From contig JAUUWK010000001.1 in assembly GCA_030589055.1 (NCBI GenBank), positions 1-37,712 of the forward strand: DNA of 37,712 bases. Reading direction: 5' to 3'. Under the pieces are notes generated by a model. That model was not told the DNA's origin, searched no databases, and worked only from the letters and a program-made list of their open reading frames with translations. Positions 13,429 through 35,803 of the stretch are shown piece by piece; position 1 is the first letter of the stretch; the number at the start of each line of letters is the position of its first letter. This stretch comes from Candidatus Bathyarchaeota archaeon (GTDB lineage Archaea > Thermoproteota > Bathyarchaeia > Bathyarchaeales > Bathycorpusculaceae). Made by a program: the position numbers and the translations under genes.

Positions 13429-13977
13429 TTGAGTGAAGAGAAAAGCTTAGAGGAACTCAAGGCTGATGTTCTGATTAAGCTTAGGAAATACAGGCTGCTT
13501 AAGAAGGAAAAAGTCAAGGATATTATGCACTATTTTATCAAGGTTCCCAAAGAAAAACAGAAAGCCCTGATTTGGTGCATCCCCAAAGAAGGCACAGTTG
13601 GCATAGCGGTAGTTAAAAACTTGGAAAAGGTCATGAAAGAGAAGAACATGGAAAGAGGGATACTTATTACAAGTGGAAAATACACCCATGCGGCACGCGT
13701 GAATGCCAAGAAAATGAACATTGAGCTTCTACCTAAAATCTTTCCATCCTTCGACATATTCAAACATAAGCTTGTTCCAAAACACGAAATGTTAACACAG
13801 AAAGAAAGAGACCAAGTACTTACTCAATACAAGATTCAGCCATACCAACTACCTGAAATCAGAGCTTCAGACCCAGCCGTAAAGGCTATAGGCGCAAACC
13901 CCGGAGATATATTGCGGATAATCAGAAAGAGCCCCACAGCAGGCACACACATAGCTTACCGTTACGTCGTGGAGTAA
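13429..13977 (+). CDS. rpoH: RNA polymerase subunit Rpo5/RpoH in a long, two-domain Rpb5-like form (TTG start uncertain)
   Basis: The C-terminus 'HKLVPKHEMLTQKERDQVLTQYKIQPYQLPEIRASDPAVKAIGANPGDILRIIRKSPTAGTHIAYRYV' is the RpoH/Rpb5 C-domain. About 100 preceding residues align by eye with the eukaryotic Rpb5 N-domain. Confidence 0.85.
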   Translation: MSEEKSLEELKADVLIKLRKYRLLKKEKVKDIMHYFIKVPKEKQKALIWCIPKEGTVGIAVVKNLEKVMKEKNMERGILITSGKYTHAARVNAKKMNIELLPKIFPSFDIFKHKLVPKHEMLTQKERDQVLTQYKIQPYQLPEIRASDPAVKAIGANPGDILRIIRKSPTAGTHIAYRYVVE

Positions 13978-16393: not shown

Positions 16394-16795
16394 CTAGGTT
16401 GGTTTGAAGCAGTATCTGGGCCACTGAGGCCATTCTGATTGCACAGCTGATGTGTCAAATCTTAAGGTTAGTTCCATGCCTATCTTGACTTTTCCATGTT
16501 CTACGTCTTTTATCATACCTGGGATTTTTAGGCTGTTTTCAAGTTGGACTATACCTACGGCGTATGGCGCCATTTGTTGGAATCGTGGAGGTGCAACGTG
16601 AATAATTGTGTACGTTAATAGTTTTCCTTTCTTGGGGACTTCAGTCCATTCGAACTCTTCCGAGAAGCAACCGTCGCACAAAGGCCTCGGCGGAAGATGT
16701 ATTTTTCCGCATCTTTTGCATTTTCCACCCATAAGTTTTCCTTCGTTGATGTACTTGTAGAATTGTTCTATTGTGAATGGTGGTTGTTCACTCAT
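16394..16795 (-). CDS. DUF35 OB-fold/Zn-ribbon protein (thiolase partner). The start is taken at 'MSEQ'
   Basis: A Zn ribbon 'CKRCGKIHLPPRPLCDGC' followed by an OB-fold region. Its ATG lies 1 nt after the thiolase stop. Confidence 0.85.
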   Translation of the reverse strand: MSEQPPFTIEQFYKYINEGKLMGGKCKRCGKIHLPPRPLCDGCFSEEFEWTEVPKKGKLLTYTIIHVAPPRFQQMAPYAVGIVQLENSLKIPGMIKDVEHGKVKIGMELTLRFDTSAVQSEWPQWPRYCFKPT

Positions 16796-16796
16796 T

Positions 16797-17969
16797 TCAT
16801 TCCCTCCTGAAAATGTGAACGGTTGCTGTTGCACCGGAACCGCCAACGTTATGGGCTAAACCTATCTTTACGTCTTTCACTTGCCTTTTCTCCGCTTGTC
16901 CAGTTAGTTGCAGATATATTTCGTAGGCTTGTGCTGTTCCTGTTGCGCCTACTGGGTGTCCTTTAGCTTTTAATCCACCGCTTGTATTCACTGGAATCTT
17001 CCCCTCAAGCCTTGTTTCGCCCTCTTCAACGAGTTGTCCACCTTCTCCAGGCTTGCAGAAGCCTAGGTCTTCGTAGGCTATTATTTCAGCTATTGTGAAG
17101 CAATCGTGAACTTCCGCTACATCTACGTCTTCAGGCTTCACCCCAGCCATCTCATAAGTTTGTCTTGCTGCCAGTTTCGCTGCCATTAAGGATGTGAAGC
17201 TTTCGCGTTCATATATTCCTATGCTGTCGCCTGCTTGTCCGCTTCCAATAACTTGGATTGGCATGTCTGTATACTTTTTAGCTATTTCTGGTTTTGTTAT
17301 GACTAAGCAGCTTGCTCCATCAGTAATCAGTGAACAGTCGTAAAGCTTTAAAGGCCAAGCGACAACTCTTGACGACACAACTTTTTCAAGGGTTACTTCC
17401 TTTTGCATGTGAGCTTTCGGGTTTAAAAATCCGTTTTGATGGTTTTTCACGGCAACCATAGCTAGTTGTTCCTCGGTTGTTCCATATCTGTGCATGTGAG
17501 CTGTAGCCATCAAAGCGTACAATCCCGGGAAGGTTATGCCGTGCCACTGCTCGAAGGGGAAATCTGAAGCCATAGCTAAATATTCAGTTACTTCTGCCGT
17601 CCTTCGGTGGGTCATCTTCTCTACCCCGCCGACCATGACAACGTCACAGAAGCCTGACAGCACAGCAAATATTCCAACCCTCAGGGCGGCGCCAGAAGAA
17701 GCGCATGCTGTTTCGATTCTTGTAGCTGGTATATGCAGTAAGCCTGCCCAGTCGGCTACTGTTGCGCCCGTATGTCCTTGATGCTCGTAGGATTCTCCCA
17801 TGTGCCCGACAAATAAGGCTTTTATGTCTTTTTTGGGGTTTAGGTTTGGGCAGCGATCAAAGGCTTCTTTTGCTGCTTCTGCGAAGATTTCTCTAGCGTA
17901 TAGGCCTTCTAATTTTCCGAATTTTGACAGTCCAGCCGACACTATCGAGACGAGCGGTTCGCCCTTCAA
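16797..17969 (-). CDS. Thiolase (archaeal acetyl-CoA C-acetyltransferase / SCP-x type) with intact catalytic residues
   Basis: A nucleophile context 'IETACASSGAAL', 'GGLKAKGHPVGATG' and 'GLAHNVGGSG'. Confidence 0.9.
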   Translation of the reverse strand: MKGEPLVSIVSAGLSKFGKLEGLYAREIFAEAAKEAFDRCPNLNPKKDIKALFVGHMGESYEHQGHTGATVADWAGLLHIPATRIETACASSGAALRVGIFAVLSGFCDVVMVGGVEKMTHRRTAEVTEYLAMASDFPFEQWHGITFPGLYALMATAHMHRYGTTEEQLAMVAVKNHQNGFLNPKAHMQKEVTLEKVVSSRVVAWPLKLYDCSLITDGASCLVITKPEIAKKYTDMPIQVIGSGQAGDSIGIYERESFTSLMAAKLAARQTYEMAGVKPEDVDVAEVHDCFTIAEIIAYEDLGFCKPGEGGQLVEEGETRLEGKIPVNTSGGLKAKGHPVGATGTAQAYEIYLQLTGQAEKRQVKDVKIGLAHNVGGSGATATVHIFRRE

Positions 17970-18125
17970 GTCAAATTCTCCTTCCAGACTGCAATTGTGT
18001 ACAGAGATTCAAATAGGCTTCAAACGAATATTTAAGTTTCATCAATAAAACCTGGAATTTTTCACGAAAGTTTTATGTGAGTAACCTTTTCATACTAAGC
18101 TTCTAAAGTTGAGAGGAAAAGAAAA

Positions 18126-19280
18126 ATGAGTGAAGTTGCCATTGTAGGTGTTGGATGCGTTGGTTTTCAACCAATACTACCGGAACTATCATACAAGGAG
18201 TTGATGTATGAAGCAGCTGTAAAAGCCTATGAGGACGCTGGAGTTGATCCACGTAAAGACGTTGATGTCTTCATCACTTGTGCTGAGGATTACTTGGAAG
18301 GCTTCAGCATCTTCGATGAATTCGTTCCAGACCAATTAGGTGCCGTGTTACGTCCTCTATTCACGGTTTCAGGCGACGGACTTCTTGGGTTGGCAAATGC
18401 TTATATGCTTATTAAGACTGGACATTTTGACACGGTTGTTCTTGAAGCTCACAGCAAAGCCTCAGACCTGCTCACATTAATGGACGTTATTGCATTCGCC
18501 CTAGATCCAGTACTCAACAGACCCTTGGGTGGTCATCCGTACTATGTTGCTGGAATGGAGATGAACCGCTATTTGCACGATACTTGCGCAACTGTGGAGC
18601 AGTGTGCTCAAGTTGTCGTCAAAAACAGGAAAAATGCTTGTGGAAATCCTTACGCGGCGTATGGTGCCAACATGACTTTAGATCAAGTTTTATGCTCTGA
18701 CATGTACTTCTATCCGTTGAAAAAGTTGGAGATAAGCACGCCTGCAGACGGTTGCGTAGTCATGGTGTTGGCTTCTGAGAAGGTTGCGGAAAAGCTTACA
18801 GACAAGCCTGTTTGGGTTAAGGGTGTTGGATGGTGCACTGAAACTCCAAATCTAGAAACAAAAGACTGGTCTAAATCTGTAGATACTCGGTTGGCGGCTG
18901 AAATGGCATACAAAACAGCCAAAATACACAATCCACGGAAGGAGGTAGACTTAGCAGAGGTCAACGACCTATTTGCATACAAGGAACTTCAACACATGGA
19001 AGCACTAAAACTATGCGCGTGTGGGGAGGCTGGAAAATTGACAGAAGAAGGGGTTACAGCTAGAAACGGCGAATTGCCTGTGAATCCCTCTGGAGGCTTG
19101 CTTGGAATGGGATACGGACTTGAGGCGTCAGGAATGGAAAAACTTCTGGAAGTGGTTTTGCAGTTAAGAAGTGAAGCGGGCAGAAGGCAAATACGCGACG
19201 CGGAGATTGGCTTGGCTCACGCTTGGCGTGGAATACCAACAACGACTGGAATTGTGGCAGTTTTAAGCAATAATAAGTGA
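18126..19280 (+). CDS. Thiolase-fold protein, apparently lacking the catalytic Cys and His
   Basis: It is collinear with the thiolase at 16797-17969. The nucleophile position reads 'TVSGDGLLGL' (Ser), and the 'GHP.GATG' position reads 'GMGYGLEASG'. Confidence 0.8.
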   Translation: MSEVAIVGVGCVGFQPILPELSYKELMYEAAVKAYEDAGVDPRKDVDVFITCAEDYLEGFSIFDEFVPDQLGAVLRPLFTVSGDGLLGLANAYMLIKTGHFDTVVLEAHSKASDLLTLMDVIAFALDPVLNRPLGGHPYYVAGMEMNRYLHDTCATVEQCAQVVVKNRKNACGNPYAAYGANMTLDQVLCSDMYFYPLKKLEISTPADGCVVMVLASEKVAEKLTDKPVWVKGVGWCTETPNLETKDWSKSVDTRLAAEMAYKTAKIHNPRKEVDLAEVNDLFAYKELQHMEALKLCACGEAGKLTEEGVTARNGELPVNPSGGLLGMGYGLEASGMEKLLEVVLQLRSEAGRRQIRDAEIGLAHAWRGIPTTTGIVAVLSNNK

Positions 19281-19293
19281 GGTGAAATGTGAA

Positions 19294-20460
19294 ATGTTTG
19301 GCAAAAAAAGAGTTGCAATTGTTGGAGCTGGCTTGACCCTATTCCGAAGACGCTTAAAAGAAACAGGTAAAGAACTGTCTTATGAAGCGTCAAAAATGGC
19401 TCTCGATGCTGCTGGAATGGAATTGCGAGATATGCAAAGCGTTGTATTGGGAACGGCGCCAGATGCTTTCGACGGAGTTCACATGAAAGGCGAATATTTA
19501 GCAGATGGGGCAGGAGCATACCGAAAACCATACACAAGGGTTTTCGTTGGTGGCGGAACAGGAGTTTTTACACCTCTGGCGGGTTGGTGGCACGTAGCCT
19601 CTGGACAGTTCGACTCATGCTTGGTTGTCGCTGAAGAGAAGATGTCCTCTTGTTATCCGCATCCTCAATATGCTTTCACAACGATATTCGACCCGATCCT
19701 CGAGCGACCGCTTGGCATGAACTTAATCTGGATATTTGCCTTGGAAATGCATCGTTACATGCACAAACACGGCATCAAGAAGGAAGATATAGCCCGAGTT
19801 TCCGTTAAAAACAAGGGAAATGCTCTAGATCATCCGTGTGCCCAATTAGGCGCAAAAATAACTGTTGAAGATGTTTTAAACTCTGAGGTTATGGCTTGGC
19901 CGGTTCAACGCTTGGATGTGAGTCCAACGAGTGACGGTGGTGCTGCGCTGGTTTTGGTTTCGGAGGATGTTGCCAAAGAGATTACTGATGACCCTGTTTG
20001 GATTGATGGTGCTGGCTGGTGCATTGACTCTACGCTTTGGACGAATCGTGACCTTTATTATCCGGATTATGTGGAGTGTGCAGCTCGTATGGCGTACAAG
20101 ATGGCTGGAATCAAAAATCCGCCGAAGGAGATCGACCTAGCTGAACCCTACGACCCATTTGACTATAAGGAACTTCATCACATGGAAGGGCTACTGCTGT
20201 GCAAGAAAGGGGAAGCACCAAAACTGACAGCGGAAGGCGTAACACAAAGGGACGGTGACTTACCGATAAATCCGTCTGGTGGACTGTTAGGCGTTGGCAA
20301 TCCAATAGCAGCGGCAGGCTTGATGAAAGTGTGTGAAATCTTTTGGCAGTTACGCGGCGAAGCAGGGAAGAGGCAGATTCCAGGCGATCCAAGAACCGGT
20401 TTGGCTCAAGCGTGGGGCGATCTGATGCAGTATGGCTCAGTGATTGTGTTGAGACGTTAA
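19294..20460 (+). CDS. Second thiolase-fold protein, apparently lacking the catalytic Cys and His (the track ORF begins at GTG 19282)
   Basis: The nucleophile position reads 'FVGGGTGVF' (Gly), and the 'GHP.GATG' position reads 'GVGNPIAAAG'. A GAGGTGA sequence precedes ATG 19294. Confidence 0.8.
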   Translation: MFGKKRVAIVGAGLTLFRRRLKETGKELSYEASKMALDAAGMELRDMQSVVLGTAPDAFDGVHMKGEYLADGAGAYRKPYTRVFVGGGTGVFTPLAGWWHVASGQFDSCLVVAEEKMSSCYPHPQYAFTTIFDPILERPLGMNLIWIFALEMHRYMHKHGIKKEDIARVSVKNKGNALDHPCAQLGAKITVEDVLNSEVMAWPVQRLDVSPTSDGGAALVLVSEDVAKEITDDPVWIDGAGWCIDSTLWTNRDLYYPDYVECAARMAYKMAGIKNPPKEIDLAEPYDPFDYKELHHMEGLLLCKKGEAPKLTAEGVTQRDGDLPINPSGGLLGVGNPIAAAGLMKVCEIFWQLRGEAGKRQIPGDPRTGLAQAWGDLMQYGSVIVLRR

Positions 20461-20475
20461 AGGAGGAGATGAAAC

Positions 20476-20997
20476 ATGAGTGAGAAGATTAAGGATTATC
20501 GGGGTGAAGCCTTAAAATCTGCAGACTTTAAAGAAGGGAGGGTTCCAACTGAGAAGTGTAGGCCGAAGGCCAAGTTCGCGTGGAGTGCAGGCATAGCCAT
20601 AGGCAGATTTCTTGAGGAGTTAAAGAAGGGAAAGATAATAGCATCAACATGTAGTAAGTGTGGACGCATTATGGTTCCGCCGAGGATATACTGTGAAAAC
20701 TGCTTTAAACCGACGGATGGCTGGAAATACGTGAAGGACACGGGGACAATAAACACTTATTCGGTTTCCTACTTAGCTGCAGACGCAAGCAGATTGAAAG
20801 AACCGATACTTGTTGCGATCATAGATTTGGACGGAGCCTCGAAAAACATGGGCTTAATCCATAAGCTTGGCGAAGTAGACAAAGATGAGATAAAATTCGG
20901 GATGAAAGTCAAAGCCGTATGGAAACCGAAGGAAGAACGAGTTGGCGCAATCACAGACATTAAATACTTCAAGCCAATAAAGGAGGCGACACCATGA
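20476..20997 (+). CDS. DUF35 OB-fold/Zn-ribbon protein, copy 2
   Basis: 'CSKCGRIMVPPRIYCENC' followed by an OB-fold tail 'IKFGMKVKAVWKP'. Confidence 0.85.
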   Translation: MSEKIKDYRGEALKSADFKEGRVPTEKCRPKAKFAWSAGIAIGRFLEELKKGKIIASTCSKCGRIMVPPRIYCENCFKPTDGWKYVKDTGTINTYSVSYLAADASRLKEPILVAIIDLDGASKNMGLIHKLGEVDKDEIKFGMKVKAVWKPKEERVGAITDIKYFKPIKEATP

Positions 20998-21467
20998 GCC
21001 TAGATAAAATAACAAACCCACTCCATATTCGCCACTGGCTGGGGGACATGGAAGCAGACTACATCTACACGTTAGGCATTGCTGGAGAACACTTCTTCAA
21101 GGAGATAAAGGAAAACGGAAGAATAATGGGTGCAAAATGTCCACGCTGCAACGTTGTCATTGTTCCACCGAGGATGTACTGTGAAAAATGCTTTGCAAAA
21201 CTTGAGGAATGGGTTGACGTAGGCACAAAAGGCACAATCCACACGTTCACGGTTGCCACAATAGATGTCGACGGTAAAAAACTGAAGGAGCCAGTGATAT
21301 TTGCATTGGTAAAGTTTGAGAGAGGTTGCGGCGGACTAATCCACAAGATAGGCGAAACGAAGACGAAGGAAGTGAAGATTGGCATGAACGTCGAGGCAGT
21401 CTTTAAGCCATCATTTGAAAGGAAAGCCTCCATAAACGACATAAAATACTTCAAACCAACTGAATAA
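20994..21467 (+). CDS. DUF35 OB-fold/Zn-ribbon protein, copy 3
   Basis: 'CPRCNVVIVPPRMYCEKC' followed by 'VKIGMNVEAVFKP'. It has a 4-nt overlap with copy 2. Confidence 0.85.
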   Translation: MSLDKITNPLHIRHWLGDMEADYIYTLGIAGEHFFKEIKENGRIMGAKCPRCNVVIVPPRMYCEKCFAKLEEWVDVGTKGTIHTFTVATIDVDGKKLKEPVIFALVKFERGCGGLIHKIGETKTKEVKIGMNVEAVFKPSFERKASINDIKYFKPTE

Positions 21468-21698
21468 CCCCAACTCCACCCCATTTTTTCCAACACTTAT
21501 TGAAGTGTTCTATAACTCAAATAGGATGAAAATTTAGTCTAATCTATGGTGGTTATGTTCAAACAGTTCTTTTGCAGAATCTTGATAGTGTTTCTTGTTG
21601 CCTTCGTGTTGATTTCTCTGATGTTTGCACAAACAGAATGTCCTAGTAGCCGGAACGAAAAGGTCTCTTGTAGTCCTGAGAAAATGCTATGGTGCAAC

Positions 21699-21719
21699 AT
21701 GTTAGAAGCGCGCGCGCAC
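21699..21719 (+). repeat. (CG)n motif copy S4, ATGTTAGAAGCGCGCGCGCAC
   Basis: Matches S6 at 18 of 19 nt. It is an inverted counterpart of S3 (GWAG(CG)n core). Confidence 0.8.
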
Positions 21720-22082
21720 ATCTGGACAAAGAACTTCCGAAACTCGGAGTTGAATACACATCTCTATCCATCAAGAAACTGCTTGGAAAAAACGCTGAAA
21801 CCATAGTGAAAGCCGCTAAAAAAATGGGCAATCCATACAGGCAGCGAAAAAATACTCAGCATGATGACCAAGCACTACAAAATTCCATATGAAAAACTCA
21901 AAGAATCGTATGAAGTGCTCGATGAATACGGCAACTTATCTGGAGCAAGCCTACCTTTCATCCTTGAAAAAATAGTTAGAGAAAATAATTTTTCCGATGG
22001 CGATATCATTTTGATGCTTGGTTTCGGATGGGGATTTTCAGCCTCTGCTTGCATGCTAAAATTTAAGAAACAACAGAAATGA
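21719..22082 (+). pseudogene. 3' fragment of a type III PKS / KAS III-like condensing enzyme. It is 5'-truncated at motif S4 and has an internal frameshift near 21840
   Basis: 'HLDKELPKLGVEY...' is in one frame. 'IHTGSEKILSMMTKHYKIPYEKLKESYEVLDEYGNLSGASLPFIL...GDIILMLGFGWGFSA' is in another and matches the chalcone-synthase/FabH C-terminal pattern. The N-terminal two thirds, including the catalytic Cys, are absent. Confidence 0.75.
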
Positions 22083-22172: not shown

Positions 22173-23852
22173 ATGTCTGACAAAGAAAAAATTAATCAAA
22201 TAACAAGGGAACGGGAACGCTGGGAAAATACAACCCTACCCAAGTGGATGGGACAACGCCCTGAAAGAAAAAGCGAATTCCGAAACCATTCGGACACGTT
22301 GATAAAACGTGTCTACACACCAGAGGACATCAAAGACCTAGATTACATGCGAGACCTTGGTTTACCAGGCGAATACCCCTTCACCCGCGGAGTACATGCA
22401 ACCATGTACAGAGGCAGACTATGGACCATGCGGCAATTTTCAGGATACGGCACAGCAGAACAAACAAACCAGCGATTCAAATACCTGCTAAAAGAAGGAG
22501 AAACAGGACTAAGCATAGCCTTTGACTACCCAACAATTAGGGGTTACGATTCAGACAATCCATTCTCTCAAGGTGAAGTCGGCACATGCGGAGTAGCAGT
22601 CGCATCATTAAAGGACATGGAAGTTCTCTTTGACGGCATACCCCTCGACAAAGTCACAACCTCCATGACTGTTAATGGTCCAGCAGCAATGTTGCTTGCT
22701 ATGTACATAGCAGTGGGAGACAAGCAAGGAGTATCCAGAGAAAAGCTCGGAGGCACAACACAAAACGATGTTCTTAAAGAATTCTTCGCTCAGAAACTAA
22801 TCATATTTCCGCCGAAGCCCTCGATAAAACTTGTAACAGACATAGTAGAATACTGCACAAAACACATGCCCAGATGGAATCCCATAAGCATAAGCGGATA
22901 CCACATACGAGAAGCTGGGTCAAACGCCGTTCAAGAACTGGCTTTCACGCTTTATGATGGAATAACCTATGTGGAGTCATGCCTTGAAAGAGGAATGAAA
23001 GTTGACGAATTTGCCCCCCGCTTATCATTCTTCTTTGCATCCCACAACAACTTGTTTGAAGAGGTAGCCAAGTTCAGAGCAGCTCGTAGAATATGGGCAA
23101 AAGTAATGAAGGAACGCTTCCACGCTAAAAACTCAAGGTCCATGTGGATGCGTATGCATGTCCAAACTTCAGGATGCACCCTCACAGCACAACAGCCACT
23201 GAACAACATCACACGAACCACAATCCAGGCTTTAGCAGCAGTCTTGGGTGGAACCCAATCGTTACACACAAACTCCTTTGACGAAGCCTTATGCTTGCCA
23301 ACCGAAGACGCCGTCAAGGTCGCATTAAGAACCCAGCAGATAATAGCTCACGAAAGCGGATCAGCTGACACGATAGATCCCCTAGCAGGCTGCTACTACA
23401 TCGAATGCTTAACGAACGAAATGGAAGGACAAGCGATGGATTATATCCAAAGAATTGACGATATGGGCGGAGCCACTGTAGCCATAGAAAGAGGGTTCTT
23501 CCAAAAAGAAATTGCTGACAGCGCCTATAAATACCAGGGGGAAACAGATGAGAAAAAACGAATCATAGTGGGCGTAAACGAATACACAACTGGGGAGGAT
23601 GCAGCAATACCGATTTTAAGGATTGACCCAAAGGTTGAAGAGAAACAGGTTGCAGGGCTGCAAAAACTGAGAAGAGAAAGAGACAATAGAAAAGTGGATG
23701 AAGTGCTTGAAGAACTCCACTACGCCGCGGAAAAGGATGAAAACCTCATGCCAGTAATTATTGAAGCCGTAAAAGCTTACGCAACAATAGGCGAAATGTG
23801 CGGCGTATTACGGAAAATTTACGGAGAATATAAAGAACTGATAGTAATCTAG
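22173..23852 (+). CDS. Methylmalonyl-CoA mutase, catalytic (TIM-barrel) subunit
   Basis: '[51 protein letters not shown]' is the classic MCM signature. Confidence 0.95.
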
Positions 23853-23866
23853 AGGAGGGAAAACAC

Positions 23867-24274
23867 ATGCAGAGCGAAAGAAAAATCAGAATTTTGATCG
23901 CCAAGCCAGGTCTTGATAGTCACGACAGAGGAGCAAAGATTGTGGCTAGAGCCCTAAGGGACGCTGGAATGGAAGTAATCTACACCGGTTTGAGGCAGAC
24001 TCCAGAGCAGATAGTTGAAACCGCCCTTCAAGAAGATGTGGACATCATAGGCTTAAGCATACTTTCGGGAGCCCACAAGGTTCTTTTCCCACGAATAATG
24101 GAACTTGTAGAACAGAAGGGCTTGACAGATGTAATGGTCTTCGCTGGAGGCATAATCCCAGAAGAAGATGTCCCAGAAATGAAGAAACTCGGAATAAAAG
24201 AGATTTTTGGACCAGGAACCCCAACAGAGAAAATAGTTCAGTTTGTATTTGAAAATCTTCCAGAAAGAACCTGA
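23867..24274 (+). CDS. Methylmalonyl-CoA mutase, B12-binding subunit
   Basis: The cobalamin-binding motif '[14 protein letters not shown]' (DxHxxG) and 'GLSILSGAH'. Confidence 0.93.
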
Positions 24275-24287
24275 ACCGTGAAGATGT

Positions 24288-25268
24288 GTGAAGCCGTTGC
24301 TACCAGTCGGAGAAATAGCCAAGGGCGTGTTAGCCGGAGACCGCAGAAGCGTAGCGAAAGCGATAACAATCATTGAAAACAACGCCTCTAAAGCACAAGA
24401 ACTAATCGCCTCGATTTACCCTCACACCGGAAAAGCCCACATAATAGGAATAACTGGCCCTCCCGGCTCTGGAAAGAGCACTCTCATAGGGAAGATCATA
24501 CGCGAGTACAGGCGGAAAGGCAAAACGGTGGGTGTTATAGCTGTGGATCCCACAAGCCCATTCACAGGAGGCGCATTCTTGGGCGACAGAATTCGCATGC
24601 AAGAGCTAAGCACAGATCAAGGAGTCTTTATACGTAGCATGGCAACCCGTAACTATCTTGGGGGAATAGCCAGAGCAACAAAAGGCGCCGTGAAAGTCTT
24701 AGACGCCGCAGGTAAAGACACAGTCATCGTGGAAACTGTTGGTGCTGGGCAGTCCGAGGTCGAAATAATTAAAATAGGGCAAACAATAGTCGTTGTATGT
24801 GCACCCGGGTTAGGAGATGAAATACAAGCAATAAAAGCTGGAATAATGGAGATAGGCGACATCTTCGTCGTAAACAAGGCTGACCGTGAAGACGCCAACA
24901 AAGCCGTAATGGACATCCAAGCAATGCTGCAACTAAACAATAAGGAAAAGAAGTGGAGGCCGACGGTTCTAAAGACTACAGCTCTCACAGGTGAAGGTGT
25001 CTCGCAACTTATTGAAAAAATAGAAGAGCATAAACTCTTCTTAGAACAGGAGTTAGAACGTAACACAAGCCGAGGAAAGGCTGAATCCGAACTGGCAGAA
25101 GCCATAAAAGAGAAAGTAGCAAATTCAATAATAGAAGAATTGAAAAGCGAAGGGAAGTTCGAAGAGTTTCTGCAAAAAATTCTGGAAAAGAAGATGGATC
25201 CTGCTTCCGTAGCTGAGAAACTCTTAAACGAGAAATTTAGAAAGCAAGTTCAGAAGTGTCAAAACTGA
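24288..25268 (+). CDS. meaB: MeaB/ArgK G3E-family GTPase (MCM chaperone)
   Basis: A P-loop 'GITGPPGSGKST', 'AVDPTSPFTGGAFLGDRIRM' and 'VVNKADRE'. Confidence 0.92.
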   Translation: MKPLLPVGEIAKGVLAGDRRSVAKAITIIENNASKAQELIASIYPHTGKAHIIGITGPPGSGKSTLIGKIIREYRRKGKTVGVIAVDPTSPFTGGAFLGDRIRMQELSTDQGVFIRSMATRNYLGGIARATKGAVKVLDAAGKDTVIVETVGAGQSEVEIIKIGQTIVVVCAPGLGDEIQAIKAGIMEIGDIFVVNKADREDANKAVMDIQAMLQLNNKEKKWRPTVLKTTALTGEGVSQLIEKIEEHKLFLEQELERNTSRGKAESELAEAIKEKVANSIIEELKSEGKFEEFLQKILEKKMDPASVAEKLLNEKFRKQVQKCQN

Positions 25269-25798
25269 TGTCTAAACTGGAAAAGGGGCTTGTTCAAGTT
25301 TACACTGGGAATGGAAAAGGCAAAACTTCAGCGGCTTTTGGGCTTGCCTTGAGGGCTATTGGTAGAGGATTGAAGGTTCATGTAATTCAGTTTATCAAAG
25401 GCGGTTTTGACTACGGCGAACTCTACATAGTGGACAAGCTTCCAAACATCAAACTGAAAGCCTTCGGTAGAGGTAAGTTCGTGACACAAAGGCCTCCGGG
25501 AAAAGAGGATGTTGAACTTGCACACGAAGCCTTCGCTTTAGCTGAGGAAGTAGTCAAAAGCGGCGAATATGACATCGTCATTCTAGACGAGGTTAATGTG
25601 GCGCTAAACTTGAAACTGATAAGTCTTGAAGAAGTTCTGGAATTAATAAAGGACAAGCCAAAACACGTTGAACTCGTGCTAACTGGACGTCATGCACCCG
25701 AGGAAATAATTAAAGCAGCTGATTTAGTTACAGAAATGAGAGAGGTTAAACATCCATTCAACAAAGGTTTTTCAGCCAGAAAAGGAATAGAATATTAG
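25256..25798 (+). CDS. ATP:cob(I)alamin adenosyltransferase, CobA/CobO/BtuR type
   Basis: 'VYTGNGKGKTSAAFGLALRAIGRGLKVHVIQFIKG', 'ILDEVN' and 'LTGR'. It overlaps the meaB 3' end. Confidence 0.88.
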   Translation: MSKLMSKLEKGLVQVYTGNGKGKTSAAFGLALRAIGRGLKVHVIQFIKGGFDYGELYIVDKLPNIKLKAFGRGKFVTQRPPGKEDVELAHEAFALAEEVVKSGEYDIVILDEVNVALNLKLISLEEVLELIKDKPKHVELVLTGRHAPEEIIKAADLVTEMREVKHPFNKGFSARKGIEY

Positions 25799-32454: not shown

Positions 32455-34419
32455 ATGCTGATTCAAGAGGTAATCCTGGAAAACTTTATGAGTTACGAAT
32501 ATGCTAGGGTACCCTTCAAATCAGGCGTAAACGTTATCTGTGGACCCAACGGTTCGGGGAAATCTTCACTTTTATTAGCTATTTCTGTGGCATTGGGGCA
32601 GTCTTACACTGAGCGATCTAGAAAGTTGAGCGATCTGATACGGTGGGGAAGAGATCAAGCCCGTGTGACGCTGGTTCTAGACAACACTAAGATTGGTAAA
32701 CGTAGACCTGTTCCCAAATTTAAGAAAGACCAAATTTTCCTTACACGTGCTCTGCGGAAGGATGGCAAATACTGGTTTGCGCTTGAAAACAGGGCAGCCA
32801 CAAAAGCTGAAGTTGAAAGGCTTCTAGCTAGGCTCGGCGTCGACCCTGATAACATGCTTATTATTATGCATCAGAACATGGTTGAACAGTTTACCGTGCT
32901 TTCTCCACAGGAAAAGTTGCGAATGGTTGAGGCTGCCGTTGGGCTTGAATCCTATCGCCAAAACGTGCTGAAGGCACGGAAGAAGCTGACACGCATATCA
33001 AGTCAAGAGAGTTCAATAAGTGAGCTTCTGGAATCAGCCGAACAGACGCTTAACTACTGGAGGGAACAGTATGACCGGTACCAAGAGAAAAAGCAACTAC
33101 TGACTAAACGGAGATTCTTGGAAAGGGAACTCGCTTGGGCAGGAGCGACAAGAAGAGAAAACATAGTTAAAGAATTAGAAGCAAACACGAAAAAACAACA
33201 GAATGTTCTAAATCAGATTGAAGACGAAACCAAAGAGATAGTAGGTCAACTTCAAATTCAGCAAAACCAGCTCGAAAAGATAAAGGATGAATGGAAAAAG
33301 CTTTTTGACGACCGTCTAAGCCTTGAACGTGAAAAAGCCAAAGGCGATTCGACAATCTCCCTGTGCGAACAGCTGCTGAAAGAAACGGCAATACTAGAGA
33401 ATGCTATTCGAAGCGGAAATCCTTCTCCCTTAGTAAGTCAAAGCTTTGAGAAAACTGTTTCAAATCGTTTTAAGCTCCTACGAAGTGAAAACCTGAAGGA
33501 GATAATACAGAACTTTGATCAGCAACTTTCAAAACTGAACACCAAAATAACGGAAAACAAAAAGGGAATGGAAAGCCTAGAAGAGAACGTTGAAAAGGTT
33601 AGCACTCACGCTTTGGACAGCAGAATTAAGTTAGCGTTGCTTCAGTACCGTGAAGAAAACGTAGAAGCTGAACTTGAAAGATTGAAAAGGGAACTGAGAG
33701 AGGCAAAAACCTACTTGGATGAAGCACTAAGAAAAGCGGAGCAGATAGGACTCCGAATCGCCGTGATAAAAAGTGTTAGTGAGATTCTTGACGAGATTAG
33801 AGTTACAGACGGGCATTTAGCTGCCCTTTCTGATGTTTCCGAAGATATAGAACGAATGTATGAATCTTATTCGAAGCTTTACTTAGAGCTGAAGGAGAAG
33901 GCAAGACTTGTTGCTGAAAACCGTGAAAAGACACTGGAAGAAATCAAAGCGAGAATGCAGGCTTGGCGAACAGTGATCCAAAGCCTCCTAGACCGCGTGA
34001 ACCTACAATATCAAAAGATTCTCACGCAAGCCCAAGCCCTTGGAGAGGTCAGACTTGTCAATGGACAAGATATAGAGGCTGCTGGACTTGGAATTCTCGT
34101 AGGTTTCAAGGGCAGCAAACCAGTTCCACTTAATGGTTACACGCAAAGCGGTGGAGAAAGAACAACAGCAACCATAAGCTTTCTGCTGGCTTTGCAGCAA
34201 CATGTTCGTTCACCTTTCCGCGCTGTTGACGAATACGATATCCACATGGACCCGAAAAACCGTGAAATAATCGCAAAGATGCTCGTTTCAACAGTTAAAG
34301 ACGCAAACGCTCAATACATTGTTCTTACGCCCAGCCAGATAACATTCACAAAAGAAGAAGTAAACATAATCACAGTGCAAAACATCGAAGGAAAATCAAT
34401 AATCAGAGGGATTGCCTAA
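32455..34419 (+). CDS. Short SMC-family ABC ATPase with Smc5/6-like head motifs and no hinge
   Basis: The N-terminus reads 'LENFMSYEYARVPFKSGVNVICGPNGSGKSSLLLAISVALGQ' (Walker A). About 330 aa of heptad-rich sequence are interrupted by 'SGNPSPLVSQSF'. The C-terminal head reads 'QSGGERTTATISFLLALQQHVRSPFRAVDEYDIHMDPKNREII' (signature motif, Walker B and D-loop). Confidence 0.85.
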   Translation: MLIQEVILENFMSYEYARVPFKSGVNVICGPNGSGKSSLLLAISVALGQSYTERSRKLSDLIRWGRDQARVTLVLDNTKIGKRRPVPKFKKDQIFLTRALRKDGKYWFALENRAATKAEVERLLARLGVDPDNMLIIMHQNMVEQFTVLSPQEKLRMVEAAVGLESYRQNVLKARKKLTRISSQESSISELLESAEQTLNYWREQYDRYQEKKQLLTKRRFLERELAWAGATRRENIVKELEANTKKQQNVLNQIEDETKEIVGQLQIQQNQLEKIKDEWKKLFDDRLSLEREKAKGDSTISLCEQLLKETAILENAIRSGNPSPLVSQSFEKTVSNRFKLLRSENLKEIIQNFDQQLSKLNTKITENKKGMESLEENVEKVSTHALDSRIKLALLQYREENVEAELERLKRELREAKTYLDEALRKAEQIGLRIAVIKSVSEILDEIRVTDGHLAALSDVSEDIERMYESYSKLYLELKEKARLVAENREKTLEEIKARMQAWRTVIQSLLDRVNLQYQKILTQAQALGEVRLVNGQDIEAAGLGILVGFKGSKPVPLNGYTQSGGERTTATISFLLALQQHVRSPFRAVDEYDIHMDPKNREIIAKMLVSTVKDANAQYIVLTPSQITFTKEEVNIITVQNIEGKSIIRGIA

Positions 34420-35246
34420 TGCAGTCTAAAAGAACTCGGATAAAACTTGGCAGGCAAAAACTTGAAAGAATAATCGAGACGTGCAAATCTGTAGAGGAAC
34501 GTTCCCTCGACCCATTCCTGTTAGATGTTGACGAAGTCATAAGTGTAATCAAAGAGTATTTTCCAGAATGGGAACTGCCAGAAGACTTGTGCTTAGATGC
34601 TGAAACTATCCATCACATAGCTTCTGTCATAAAGCTTCAAAGCGAGTGGGTTAAACATCGTTCCACATCACTTTATACAGATCCATTTCTTTTTGAGGAG
34701 AAACTTACGCGAATAAGCAAAGAAGAGATTGTTGAGATTTTCCTGAAGGCTTGGCATCCAACGGTTGAATTAGAACAGATTTCGCTTCACAGTTTAGCGG
34801 AGGCAATCAAGTATTGGAAAAGCTTGTTGCCGTTAAATGCAAGGTGGAAAGAATTTTTCCCTGAGAAAATTGAAGCCGGTCTTGCAACAAGAGAAGAGCT
34901 GATAAAGCAGAGAGTCTTAGGAGAGAAAGCGTTCTCAGAGGAACTTGAGGACTCTTGGCTGAAATTAAAGAGGAAGGTTGAAGAGAGGGGTGAAGACGGC
35001 AAAATTCGATACTGGGATTTCATTGGTGCAGAAACTTATGAGGAAACCGTGCATAAAGCCTTCATGATAAGTTTCTTGGTCACATATGGCTATGCAACTT
35101 TGGAAATTTATCCATTGGAGGAGGAGATTTTCATTAAACCATACGAAGAGCTATTGACCAAAATCGGAGAAAAACAGTTGGTTTCAATACCTATAGCTAT
35201 CACAGCAGAAGACTGGATGAAATGGAAACGAGGCGAGCTACAGTGA
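34419..35246 (+). CDS. Kleisin-like protein (ScpA/Nse4-like)
   Basis: An N-terminal helical segment 'SLDPFLLDVDEVISVIKEYF'. A C-terminal winged-helix-like 'YEETVHKAFMISFLVTYGYATLEIYPLEEEIFIKP' resembles the kleisin cap-binding WHD. Its ATG overlaps the SMC stop (TAATG). Confidence 0.6.
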   Translation: MQSKRTRIKLGRQKLERIIETCKSVEERSLDPFLLDVDEVISVIKEYFPEWELPEDLCLDAETIHHIASVIKLQSEWVKHRSTSLYTDPFLFEEKLTRISKEEIVEIFLKAWHPTVELEQISLHSLAEAIKYWKSLLPLNARWKEFFPEKIEAGLATREELIKQRVLGEKAFSEELEDSWLKLKRKVEERGEDGKIRYWDFIGAETYEETVHKAFMISFLVTYGYATLEIYPLEEEIFIKPYEELLTKIGEKQLVSIPIAITAEDWMKWKRGELQ

Positions 35247-35803
35247 GCAGAAGGAAAGCCTACTACACGAACAAAATTAAGAGGGCGGTTCATCTGCTCT
35301 TCTACCGAAGACACAGAAAGCCCGGAGTAAAGGGATGGGAGCTCCGGAAAGCCTTAGGCTCAGATTACCCAAAAGTCCTGAAAATTCTAGACAAACATCT
35401 AAAACCCCTCGATTTACAGGTGAAAACAGTTTTTGAGGGAGAGAAACCAGTTGGAAAACCAACTTTAGACCAGTTGAACAAGGCCAGGTTCTGCATAACA
35501 TTAAGAGGGGAATTAACACCCAAAGAAGCCAAGATGATAGGGTGGCGAATAGACGACCTCGCAGGACTAGCAATAACAATCGCCTACATAATATCCAGAA
35601 AAGGAAGAGCACCGCGAAAAGAAGTTGAAGAGCTGTTGCGCGACAAACTGCCCGAATGGAAGGTTGGAATGAACGTCGATCGGTACATTCGTTACGGATA
35701 TTTAACACAGGATGAAAATGAACAAGTATACTTGGATTGGAGAACCAATACTGAGGTTGATCAGAAAGCCCTCGTAGACCTTGTTTTGAGCGCTGAAACC
35801 TAA
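35222..35803 (+). CDS. Tandem winged-helix KITE-like protein (ScpB/Nse3-MAGE-like). An alternative GTG start lies at 35243
   Basis: WH-A reads 'AVHLLFYRRHRKPGVKGWELRKALGSDYPKVLKILDKHLKPLDLQVKTV...ARFCITL'. WH-B reads 'LAGLAITIAYIISRKGRAPRKEVEELLRDKLP...YIRYGYL'. It overlaps the kleisin gene. Confidence 0.55.
   Translation: METRRATVSRRKAYYTNKIKRAVHLLFYRRHRKPGVKGWELRKALGSDYPKVLKILDKHLKPLDLQVKTVFEGEKPVGKPTLDQLNKARFCITLRGELTPKEAKMIGWRIDDLAGLAITIAYIISRKGRAPRKEVEELLRDKLPEWKVGMNVDRYIRYGYLTQDENEQVYLDWRTNTEVDQKALVDLVLSAET

Follow-up and report, generated by a model that had tools for sequence, protein, structure and literature searches.

What can a pair of thiolase-fold proteins do when neither of them keeps the catalytic residues of a thiolase, and why is the pair encoded together with two different DUF35 proteins? 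This question is raised by a four-gene cassette at positions 18126-21467 of a 37,712-nucleotide stretch of DNA from a Candidatus Bathyarchaeota archaeon (GenBank assembly GCA_030589055.1, contig JAUUWK010000001.1, positions 1 to 37,712 of the forward strand), which is referred to here as the window. The two thiolase-fold proteins, T1 and T2, have lost all three catalytic residues, and the residues that stand in their place are invariant across archaeal phyla in T2 and variable in T1. We regard it as an evenly balanced question whether the cassette encodes an archaeal heteromeric aldol-lyase of the Ltp3/Ltp4 type, in which T2 would be the catalytic subunit, T1 a degenerate partner, and the DUF35 proteins D1 and D2 the staples. 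The four genes are as follows.

18126-19280, plus strand: T1, thiolase-fold protein of 384 amino acids (aa) (Pfam Thiolase_C_1; NCBIfam PRK06066)
19294-20460, plus strand: T2, thiolase-fold protein of 388 aa counted from its ATG, with an alternative GTG start at 19282 (NCBIfam PRK06065)
20476-20997, plus strand: D1, DUF35 protein of 173 aa (Pfam zf-ChsH2 and OB_ChsH2_C)
20994-21467, plus strand: D2, DUF35 protein of 157 aa (Pfam zf-ChsH2 and OB_ChsH2_C)

The four open reading frames (ORFs) are co-oriented and tightly packed, and their number, paralogy and spacing agree, by ORF calls and Pfam matches, with what an earlier annotation made from the letters alone (the sequence-only reading) had described. 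T1 and T2 are separated by 1 nucleotide if T2 starts at its GTG or by 13 nucleotides if it starts at its ATG, and the ATG at 19294 is the likelier start because nearly all homologs are 388 aa in length. A gap of 15 nucleotides follows between T2 and D1, with GGAGG just 5' of D1, and D1 overlaps D2 by 4 nucleotides (ATGA). Judged by this spacing, the cassette genes are predicted to be translationally coupled. Identity is 43% between T1 and T2 and likewise 43% between D1 and D2 (BLASTP). Pfam matches T1 to Thiolase_C_1 and T2 to both Thiolase_C_1 and Thiolase_N. In NCBIfam, T1 meets PRK06066 as a borderline match (516.6 bits, cutoff 516) and T2 clearly exceeds PRK06065 (697.2 bits, cutoff 455); both are equivalog models titled only 'thiolase domain-containing protein'. 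D1 and D2 each combine a Cys4 zinc ribbon (CSKC...CENC in D1 and CPRC...CEKC in D2) with an oligonucleotide/oligosaccharide-binding (OB) fold, and D1 carries an additional N-terminal extension of about 45 residues. The nearest homologs of these genes are found in Bathyarchaeia, and the archaeal window also encodes Rpb5- and Rpb1-type RNA polymerase subunits. Pipeline annotation calls the homologs of the thiolase-fold proteins acetyl-CoA C-acetyltransferase almost everywhere.

Whether this name can be right depends on the catalytic columns, for which a divergently encoded thiolase in the same window serves as comparison.

16797-17969, minus strand: T0, active-looking SCP2/archaeal-type thiolase, divergent and upstream of T1
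16394-16846, divergently upstream of T1 together with T0: D0, DUF35 partner of T0

The columns were fixed by HMMER alignments to six solved thiolases (including 6ESQ, 7YVY, 7PXP, 6HSJ and 4YZO), by a MAFFT alignment of 130 sequences, and by motif counts across homologs. T0 retains Cys89 (ACASSG), His288-Asp-Cys290-Phe (HDCF) and His338 (GHPVG), so that the nucleophile and the His ascribed to it earlier are both in place. The corresponding positions of the two paralogs read as follows.

Nucleophilic Cys89 of T0: a VSGDG loop with a three-residue deletion in T1 (Gly or a gap, no Cys); Gly in T2 (GGGTG)
HDCF motif of T0: NDLF in T1; YDPF in T2
His338 of T0 (GHP): Tyr330 in T1 (G-Y-G); Asn in T2 (G-N-P)

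In the 388-aa numbering, T2 has Gly87 at the Cys column, while HDCF is replaced by Tyr286-Asp-Pro-Phe and His-Pro by Asn336-Pro. Both paralogs are without the nucleophilic Cys, the acid/base Cys of HDCF and the oxyanion-hole His of GHP; the second of these losses had gone unmentioned in the sequence-only reading. That reading had assigned a Cys-to-Ser change to T1, and the absence of Cys stands, but the identity of the replacement does not, as it depends on the alignment and the column holds Gly or a gap. Its other calls, a missing His in T1 and the loss of both Cys (to Gly) and His in T2, are borne out by HMMER and MAFFT. All 120 of the 120 close homologs counted carry the T2 substitutions, as do orthologs from other phyla, and the loss of catalytic residues in the two proteins is far beyond chance. 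Given that an acyl-Cys intermediate is required, thiolase chemistry of T1 and T2 is excluded. The pipeline name and a fold and length typical of thiolases would fit ordinary SCP-x-type or archaeal thiolases whose catalytic residues had been missed by a manual alignment. There is next to no chance of this, since HMMER, the 130-sequence alignment and the motif counts all place non-catalytic residues at these columns, while T0 keeps its Cys and His in the very same alignment; residues conserved at an offset are thereby excluded.

Relatives of T2 occur in at least 596 species genomes from many archaeal phyla, according to a scan that took one genome per species and from which the best 80 loci were then fetched. 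In 67 of the 74 loci with enough flanking DNA, T1-T2-D1-D2 are kept in this order on one strand (tblastn). The exceptions include D1 and D2 relocated nearby (L047 and L089), a frameshifted T1 (L013), and an extra inserted gene. T2 is 72-98% identical over Bathyarchaeia, Asgard archaea, Nitrososphaerales/Nitrosopumilales, Thermoplasmata, Methanofastidiosia, Geoarchaeota/Geothermarchaeota and a Korarchaeota-like metagenome-assembled genome, and few representatives of its family are left after clustering at 50% identity. The signature of Gly, YDPF and GNP is invariant in the 120 close homologs as well as in the orthologs from Asgard archaea, Nitrososphaerales, Thermoplasmata, Methanofastidiosia and others. 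Beyond the orthologs, the combination G / Y-x-[P/A]-F / N-P is retained by relatives that are only about 35-42% identical (32 of about 130 sequences). By contrast, T1 orthologs share 36-95% identity and read [D/H/N]-D-[K/T/S/W/R/L/M]-[F/Y] at the HDCF equivalent and G-[N/H/Y/F]-x at the GHP equivalent, with only an x-[G/A]-D-G loop and its deletion being constant. T1 therefore looks non-catalytic rather than like a second active enzyme, because all three catalytic positions vary. In a crude neighbour-joining tree, relatives with the Gly/Tyr/Asn combination form a clade with T2, apart from active thiolases with Cys/His/Cys/His, and T1 shares a major branch with heterogeneous degenerate proteins. 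By these patterns of substitution, T2 appears to be the constrained subunit and T1 the relaxed one. The DUF35 proteins keep their zinc ribbon as well, CxxC...CxxC being present in 60 of 62 D1 and 56 of 57 D2 orthologs.

The contrast between T1 and T2 bears on the proposal that the cassette is a non-catalytic scaffold or pseudoenzyme that organises or regulates other acyl-CoA enzymes, such as T0/D0, dehydrogenases or a mutase. All canonical catalytic residues are gone from both paralogs, proteins with many interaction surfaces also tend to be very highly conserved in sequence, and T0/D0 are divergent neighbours of the cassette in about 30 loci. Precedents exist, given that the ketothiolase (KT)/DUF35 core of S. 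acidocaldarius recruits a reductase and a dehydratase and nucleates assembly of a fatty-acid synthase (bioRxiv 10.1101/2024.07.05.601840), and that PhlA is a catalytically silent subunit of the thiolase superfamily (PMC6392133). However, the Gly, Tyr, Pro and Asn that replace the catalytic residues of T2 are invariant across phyla and common to bacterial relatives of less than 40% identity, and therefore indicate an active site that is preserved rather than relaxed, while relaxation is what T1 displays at the same columns. In most loci, moreover, neither T0/D0 nor any constant partner gene is present. We thus consider a mere scaffold unlikely.

If the site of T2 is preserved for a reaction other than that of a thiolase, the steroid retro-aldolases Ltp2 and Sal are the relatives to compare it with. 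In these enzymes, the base is the Tyr of a Y-D-x-F/Y motif (Y294-DHF in TcLtp2 and Y302-DCY in CtSal) that occupies the X-D-C-X position of SCP2-thiolases, Sal has Gly where thiolases have their nucleophilic Cys, and the enolate proton is donated by Tyr344 in Ltp2 and by Cys304 in Sal (PMC12329534). The YDPF of T2 aligns with the HDCF of SCP2-thiolases, Tyr facing His, and the coordinates of the match to 6OK1 put this Tyr at about residue 294 of Ltp2. In Ltp2 (294-344), Sal (302-352), T0 (288-338) and T2 alike, 50 residues separate the motif from the His position. Both features, a base Tyr (Tyr286) and Gly for Cys (Gly87), are thus present and invariant in T2. The base Tyr is not found in T1, which has Asn, Asp or His at that position. 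T1 of the window does have Tyr at the Ltp2 Tyr344 column, and no weight was given to it because orthologs have Asn, His, Tyr or Phe there and because it sits on a different subunit. Like the cassette, Ltp2-ChsH2 (6OK1) and Sal-Shy (9MYR) consist of a thiolase fold without nucleophilic Cys and a DUF35 partner. They differ from it in being homodimers whose flanking DUF35, of a single type, forms part of a fusion with a MaoC hydratase, and in acting on steroids.

A closer parallel in subunit composition is Ltp3-Ltp4, described as a heteromeric aldol-lyase that removes the C24 branches of sitosterol and campesterol side chains and cuts the C24-C25 bond after carboxylation and hydration of the C24-branched side chain (Wilbrink 2012, as cited in PMC6678751). 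In our reading, this cleavage step may be seen as formally analogous to that of HMG-CoA (3-hydroxy-3-methylglutaryl-CoA) lyase. In Mycobacterium tuberculosis, ltp4 (Rv3522) and ltp3 (Rv3523) adjoin Rv3521, which we take to be a double DUF35 protein. A tblastn search of plasmids with T2 found no ortholog above 37% identity and yielded bacterial Ltp3/4-like cassettes only. The cassette on a Streptomyces plasmid (L088) encodes an EchA19-like crotonase (scoring 369 bits on the EchA19 model, cutoff 400), a 313-aa double DUF35 protein, a 350-aa 'lipid-transfer protein' of family PRK07937, and a 388-aa protein of family PRK08313. In the MAFFT alignment, its long subunit shares with T2 an N-terminal APDxF[E/D]GV, Gly at the Cys position, Y-x-P-F and N-P, and the x-D-G loop of T1, with its deletion, recurs in the short subunit. 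As in archaea, two adjacent Cys-less thiolase-fold paralogs go together with two DUF35 modules per pair. T2 groups with Ltp3/4-type long subunits in the neighbour-joining tree, and T1 falls on the major branch of degenerate partners that includes the short subunit. From the EchA19-like neighbour and the subunit lengths, PRK08313 is presumed to stand for Ltp3 and PRK07937 for Ltp4. The Streptomyces cassette differs in gene order and in having its DUF35 modules fused, the first repeat being without zinc-ribbon cysteines by eye. The archaeal proteins for their part belong to separate NCBIfam families (PRK06065/PRK06066 vs PRK08313/PRK07937) and stand in a short-chain acyl-CoA context, with no EchA19, FadD19 or sterol context.

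Other known systems share single traits with the cassette. The archaeal DUF35-bound thiolases (6ESQ/6ET9), of which T0/D0 is an instance, are the nearest structures to T2 and have DUF35 as an obligatory staple, but they keep Cys/His/Cys and Claisen chemistry and are homodimers with one DUF35 type. ST0096 of Sulfolobus tokodaii (4YZO, 'thiolase-like protein') ranks with the best matches of T1 and T2 in both sequence and structure, and has neither the nucleophilic Cys (it reads TSGSGG) nor the Cys of HDCF (it reads HDMA), but it is only about 30% identical and keeps the GHP His. The DUF35 prototype SSO2064 of S. solfataricus (3IRB) is the best Protein Data Bank (PDB) match of both D1 and D2; like 4YZO, it is a structural-genomics entry without an assigned function. 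PhlABC/MucABC resemble the cassette in that one operon encodes a thiolase-fold subunit, a silent subunit of the thiolase superfamily and a DUF35 subunit that are active only as a complex (PMC6392133). They differ from it in that PhlC keeps Cys88 and His347 for acyl transfer, PhlA is HMG-CoA synthase- or KAS III-like (ketoacyl synthase III), and DUF35 is of one type. The HMG-CoA synthase- or KAS III-like subunit shared by PhlABC and the three-component thiolase/HMG-CoA synthase/DUF35 complex has no counterpart in the annotated loci of the cassette, apart from a KAS III-like gene after D2 in 3 of 86 loci and its frameshifted remnant in the window. Literature searches found no functional description of the archaeal cassette, and a paper on branched-chain amino acids in Calditenuaceae does not mention its genes. 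The earlier statement that this is not a described archaeal enzyme thus stands as far as function is concerned, although it overlooked the precedent of Ltp3-Ltp4 and the NCBIfam models that already exist for both paralogs. DUF35-stapled, Cys-less thiolase-fold lyases are known from bacterial steroid catabolism, and a heteromeric version is known genetically (Ltp3-Ltp4). What we did not find described is a widespread, conserved archaeal version with four subunits, a Tyr/Pro/Asn signature, two separate DUF35 genes and a non-steroid, short-chain context.

How would four such proteins be assembled? An AlphaFold2 model of T2 built from a 108-sequence alignment reached a mean predicted local distance difference test (pLDDT) score of 95.6, while one from 13 highly similar sequences gave 42.8 and was discarded. 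The retained model is nearest to the DUF35-clamped thiolase of M. thermolithotrophicus (6ET9/6ESQ) with a template modelling (TM) score of 0.93 at 30% identity, compared with 0.84-0.86 against Ltp2 or Sal. By sequence, T1 matches 6ESQ at an E-value of 1e-35, and T2 shows modest similarity to 6OK1 (5e-25) and 9MYR (1e-23). The best PDB matches of D1 are 3IRB, the DUF35 chain of 6ESQ and the ChsH2 DUF35 of 6OK1, and D2 matches 3IRB at 2e-23. Solved relatives always have one DUF35 per thiolase-fold subunit (PMC12329534, PMC6392133); Sal-Shy is arranged as alpha-beta-beta-alpha, Shy being the DUF35 protein (PMC12329534), and PhlB bridges subunits within PhlABC (PMC6392133). A pseudo-symmetric T1-T2 heterodimer of thiolase folds would accordingly form the core, with one zinc-ribbon/OB protein stapled to each subunit. 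Such a heterodimer presents two different docking surfaces and therefore needs two different DUF35 proteins, as encoded. Partial correlations of distance matrices were 0.57 for T2-D1, 0.51 for T1-D2 and 0.09 for T1-D1, with the sequence pairs not being independent and rates differing among them; they tentatively suggest that D1 sits on T2 and D2 on T1. Fused forms also speak for a single complex. A family of 731-aa T2-D1-D2 fusions (the P0243 cluster) has 27 members, and in the one locus that was read (L091, 2585-4780) the fusion follows a T1-like gene and precedes a gene for a class A penicillin-binding protein; the host is therefore evidently bacterial, and the cassette also occurs in some bacteria. 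A 679-aa protein (P0085) was considered as a natural T1-T2 fusion and rejected: some 60 residues are missing from the end of its T1 part and 50 from the start of its T2 part, and it is therefore probably an assembly or frameshift chimera. With the conserved four-gene order, the coupling, the T2-D1-D2 fusions and the DUF35-thiolase pairing of solved relatives all in its favour, the 2 + 2 assembly proposed from the sequence is well supported, and we hold it very probable that T1, T2, D1 and D2 form one heteromeric complex.

Applied to this complex, the steroid precedents suggest a reversible retro-aldol reaction in which a 3-hydroxyacyl-CoA would be split into acetyl- or propionyl-CoA and a ketone or aldehyde. 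Tyr286 of the YDPF motif in T2 would take the proton of the beta-hydroxyl, Gly87 in place of Cys would leave room for this hydroxyl and offer it a hydrogen bond, and Asn336 in place of the oxyanion-hole His would stabilise the thioester enolate. T1 would be degenerate, probably non-catalytic, and needed for folding and assembly. Several observations weigh against such a reaction. T2 is without the proton donors of Ltp2 and Sal, having Asn336 at the Tyr344 column and Pro288 at the column of Cys304 of Sal and His296 of Ltp2. The cassette has neither a hydratase gene nor a fused hydratase domain, whereas Ltp2/Sal work with ChsH2/Shy and Ltp3/4 with EchA19. The T2 backbone is nearer to true archaeal thiolases than to Ltp2 or Sal, as the TM scores above indicate. 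Similarity to the presumed Ltp3/4 families is distant, T2 scoring 260 bits against PRK08313 (cutoff 514) and T1 110 bits against PRK07937 (cutoff 419), and the aldol-lyase role of Ltp3-Ltp4 itself appears to rest on mutant phenotypes rather than enzymology. Links to neighbouring genes are variable, the cassette being a stand-alone four-gene operon in most loci. Finally, one operon described below (L084) has a dehydrogenase set and no active thiolase, which fits a thiolase-like role equally well. The suggestion of non-Claisen, aldol-type chemistry in the sequence-only reading is thus plausible in view of the base Tyr of T2, a residue that the reading had proposed to look for, but it is tempered by the missing donors and by a T1 that looks non-catalytic. 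Overall, aldol-lyase chemistry may be as probable as all other options combined.

Neighbouring genes, where they recur, point to metabolism of C4-C6, partly branched, acyl-CoAs and of acetoacetate. An acyl-CoA dehydrogenase gene is nearby in 17 loci from several phyla, and T0/D0 lie divergently upstream of T1 in the fetched loci mentioned above. The L084 operon runs in the order acyl-CoA dehydrogenase, adenosyltransferase, mutase large and small subunits, T1, T2, D1, D2 and MeaB, with thioesterase, 3-hydroxyacyl-CoA dehydrogenase and TetR regulator genes upstream. In eight Nitrososphaerales/Nitrosopumilales loci (L053, L058, L059, L060, L063, L067, L072 and L083), an acetoacetate-CoA ligase gene (938 bits, cutoff 639) is inserted between T2 and D1. 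Near these ligase-bearing cassettes are genes for a class IV aminotransferase (the fold class of branched-chain aminotransferase), a classical thiolase, an AMP-forming acyl-CoA synthetase, the alpha subunit of electron transfer flavoprotein (ETF-alpha), a PrpD-like protein and a cis-prenyltransferase. No gene for a MaoC protein or crotonase was seen in the operons examined, none for methylcrotonyl-CoA carboxylase or a hydratase was consistently near the cassette, and a look for sterol-type neighbours (EchA19 or FadD19 context) found none. A partnership with HMG-CoA synthase was rejected, as the annotated loci contain no match to HMG_CoA_synt.

Part of this context would also suit a Claisen or retro-Claisen enzyme that works without Cys, in which the thiolate of a second bound CoA attacks a 3-ketoacyl-CoA such as acetoacetyl-CoA and the two DUF35 proteins correspond to two CoA sites. 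L084 combines acyl-CoA dehydrogenase, 3-hydroxyacyl-CoA dehydrogenase and an isobutyryl-CoA-type mutase without an active thiolase, the ligase inside the Nitrososphaerales cassettes makes acetoacetyl-CoA, and the T2 backbone is nearest to acetoacetyl-CoA thiolases. In the archaeal thiolase/HMG-CoA synthase complex, DUF35 is reported to contribute to a shared CoA-binding site. However, we know of no precedent for thiolysis by a thiolase-fold enzyme without a nucleophilic Cys, and the acid/base Cys and the His are gone too. The only invariant cysteines of T2, Cys109 and Cys347, are not kept in the wider Gly/Tyr/Asn family. Active thiolases (T0, c12) also adjoin the cassette in many loci, where a second one would be redundant. 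Such an enzyme is accordingly quite unlikely.

The mutase genes bear on yet another option. Close behind D2 on the same strand in some relatives, they are found in the window at the following positions.

22173-23852: mutase large subunit
23867-24274: mutase B12 subunit
24288-25268: MeaB
25256-25798: adenosyltransferase

Pfam and NCBIfam call the large subunit methylmalonyl-CoA mutase (MCM). In an alignment that included 1REQ, 5REQ and HcmA, with the Y89F mutant 5REQ fixing the Tyr89 column, it has Phe where MCM has Tyr89 and Gln where MCM has Arg207. Among PDB entries it matches the 2-hydroxyisobutyryl-CoA mutase HcmA best (615 bits vs 525 for MCM), but it lacks the HcmA Ile at the Tyr89 column, and Ala (SIAFD) replaces the Asp of HcmA STDFD; these HcmA residues are numbered Ile90 and Asp117. 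Phe/Gln is the signature of isobutyryl-CoA mutase, as opposed to Tyr89/Arg207 in MCM. Because of these two columns and the HcmA match, the window enzyme is probably an isobutyryl-CoA-type mutase (butyryl/isobutyryl or isovaleryl/pivalyl) and not MCM. All 21 of the 21 mutases that directly flank the cassette, from at least four lineages, are of the Phe/Gln type, whereas two that adjoin epimerase/carboxylase genes are of the Tyr/Arg type. A methylmalonyl-CoA link of the cassette was therefore rejected.

The option in question is other enolate chemistry, such as decarboxylation of malonyl- or methylmalonyl-CoA, epimerisation or enoyl-CoA hydration, which needs only an oxyanion hole and one acid/base residue. 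It is true that carboxyltransferase, epimerase, biotin ligase and acyl-CoA mutase genes are near the cassette in some loci, and that the beta-oxidation-like operon of L084 has no hydratase. Weak decarboxylation also has precedents, both in ketosynthase/chain length factor (KS/CLF) partners and in the Cys-less SCP2-thiolase-like protein TbSLP (YDCF), which slowly decarboxylates malonyl-CoA (PMC12329534). Against it, the mutases directly adjacent to the cassette are not of the MCM type, which weakens a methylmalonyl-CoA link, the decarboxylase rate of TbSLP is very low and its authors now propose an aldolase (PMC12329534), and the closest relatives at the family level, the Ltp3/4-like proteins, are assigned aldol-lyase roles (PMC6678751). 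Taken together, we rate enolate chemistry of this kind as improbable.

Returning to the aldol-lyase, a candidate reaction would be the cleavage of HMG-CoA, or a similar tertiary 3-hydroxyacyl-CoA, to acetyl-CoA and acetoacetate. A reaction like that of HMG-CoA lyase would fit the analogy to Ltp3/4, a tertiary 3-hydroxyacyl-CoA substrate and the acetoacetate-CoA ligase, and as a hypothesis it has modest support; HMG-CoA in particular is a rather unlikely substrate. On a bolder reading, the cassette might represent a so far unrecognised, widespread archaeal thiolase-fold aldolase that connects a 3-hydroxyacyl-CoA with acetyl-CoA and a short carbonyl partner such as acetoacetate, acetaldehyde or some other small ketone or aldehyde, a possibility that we put forward tentatively and well below an even chance. 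In one version, it would take the place of HMG-CoA lyase, without being homologous to it, when archaea metabolise leucine or ketone bodies. In the other, working in the synthetic direction, it would allow C4-C6 acyl-CoAs to be built independently of ATP and malonyl-CoA, bypassing the thermodynamically uphill thiolase condensation. Either would bear on how fatty-acid-like compounds and isoprenoid precursors are made or broken down in Asgard archaea, Bathyarchaeia and ammonia-oxidising archaea.

The loss of thiolase chemistry has consequences of its own. Being annotated as acetyl-CoA C-acetyltransferase, T1 and T2 are counted as thiolases in metabolic reconstructions of Bathyarchaeia, Asgard archaea, Thermoplasmata and Nitrososphaerales, where they affect beta-oxidation, butyrate metabolism, the mevalonate pathway and the 3-hydroxypropionate/4-hydroxybutyrate cycle, although they cannot perform the thiolase reaction. 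An identity of at least 72% between archaeal phyla is also unusual conservation for a protein such as T2 without an assigned function. If T2 is an aldol-lyase, the chemistry of Ltp and Sal, so far specific to steroids, would extend to central short-chain acyl-CoA metabolism of archaea, and the need for two different DUF35 proteins would be explained. The cassette would also provide a model for the evolution of paired catalytic and degenerate subunits in the thiolase superfamily, to which the KS/CLF pair of type II polyketide synthases is analogous.

Some further features of the locus were read from the sequence:

17970..18125: A/T-rich region with TATA-like stretches between T0 and T1, presumed to be a shared promoter
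21484..21489, plus strand: putative oligo-T terminator, six T beginning 17 nucleotides past the D2 stop

A GAGAGG purine tract stands directly 5' of the T1 ATG, and the six-T run after D2 is possibly an archaeal terminator that ends the four-gene unit. Scans of the window for tRNA genes and Rfam families returned nothing relevant. The divergent T0/D0 pair has no adjoining HMG-CoA synthase gene, unlike the classic archaeal arrangement of three genes. As listed, D0 begins at a TTG and overlaps the end of T0 by 50 nucleotides, and its true start is therefore probably an internal Met (MSEQPP...). Between D2 and the mutase, positions 21716-22082 hold a frameshifted C-terminal remnant of a gene like KAS III or type III polyketide synthase (residues 255-372 of 372, in two frames), of which a listed 73-aa ORF (21861-22082) is part; an intact KAS III-like gene occupies this place in 3 of 86 loci (L007, L009 and L018), all from Bathyarchaeia. 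In L001 (6094-8511) and L089 (8734-11250), T1-T2 adjoin a LamB_YcsF / CT_C_D / CT_A_B trio resembling the 5-oxoprolinase PxpABC, and D1 and D2 are not downstream of T2; L001 has a biotin-protein ligase gene adjacent as well.

Elsewhere in the window, the region 32455-35803 encodes a 654-aa SMC/AAA_15-type ATPase and, after it, two ORFs that overlap each other (34419-35246 and 35222-35803) and have no Pfam match; together these may be a defence or DNA-maintenance module. The Rpb5/RpoH subunit at 13429-13977 (182 aa) has a Mrr/restriction-endonuclease-like domain (Pfam NA-iREase1 and Mrr_cat) at its N-terminus, before its Rpb5 C-terminal domain, whereas archaeal RpoH usually consists of the C-terminal domain alone. 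Homologs of this long form were present in 11 fetched loci, one of them from Hodarchaeota, and it may merit comparison with the N-terminal domain of eukaryotic Rpb5.

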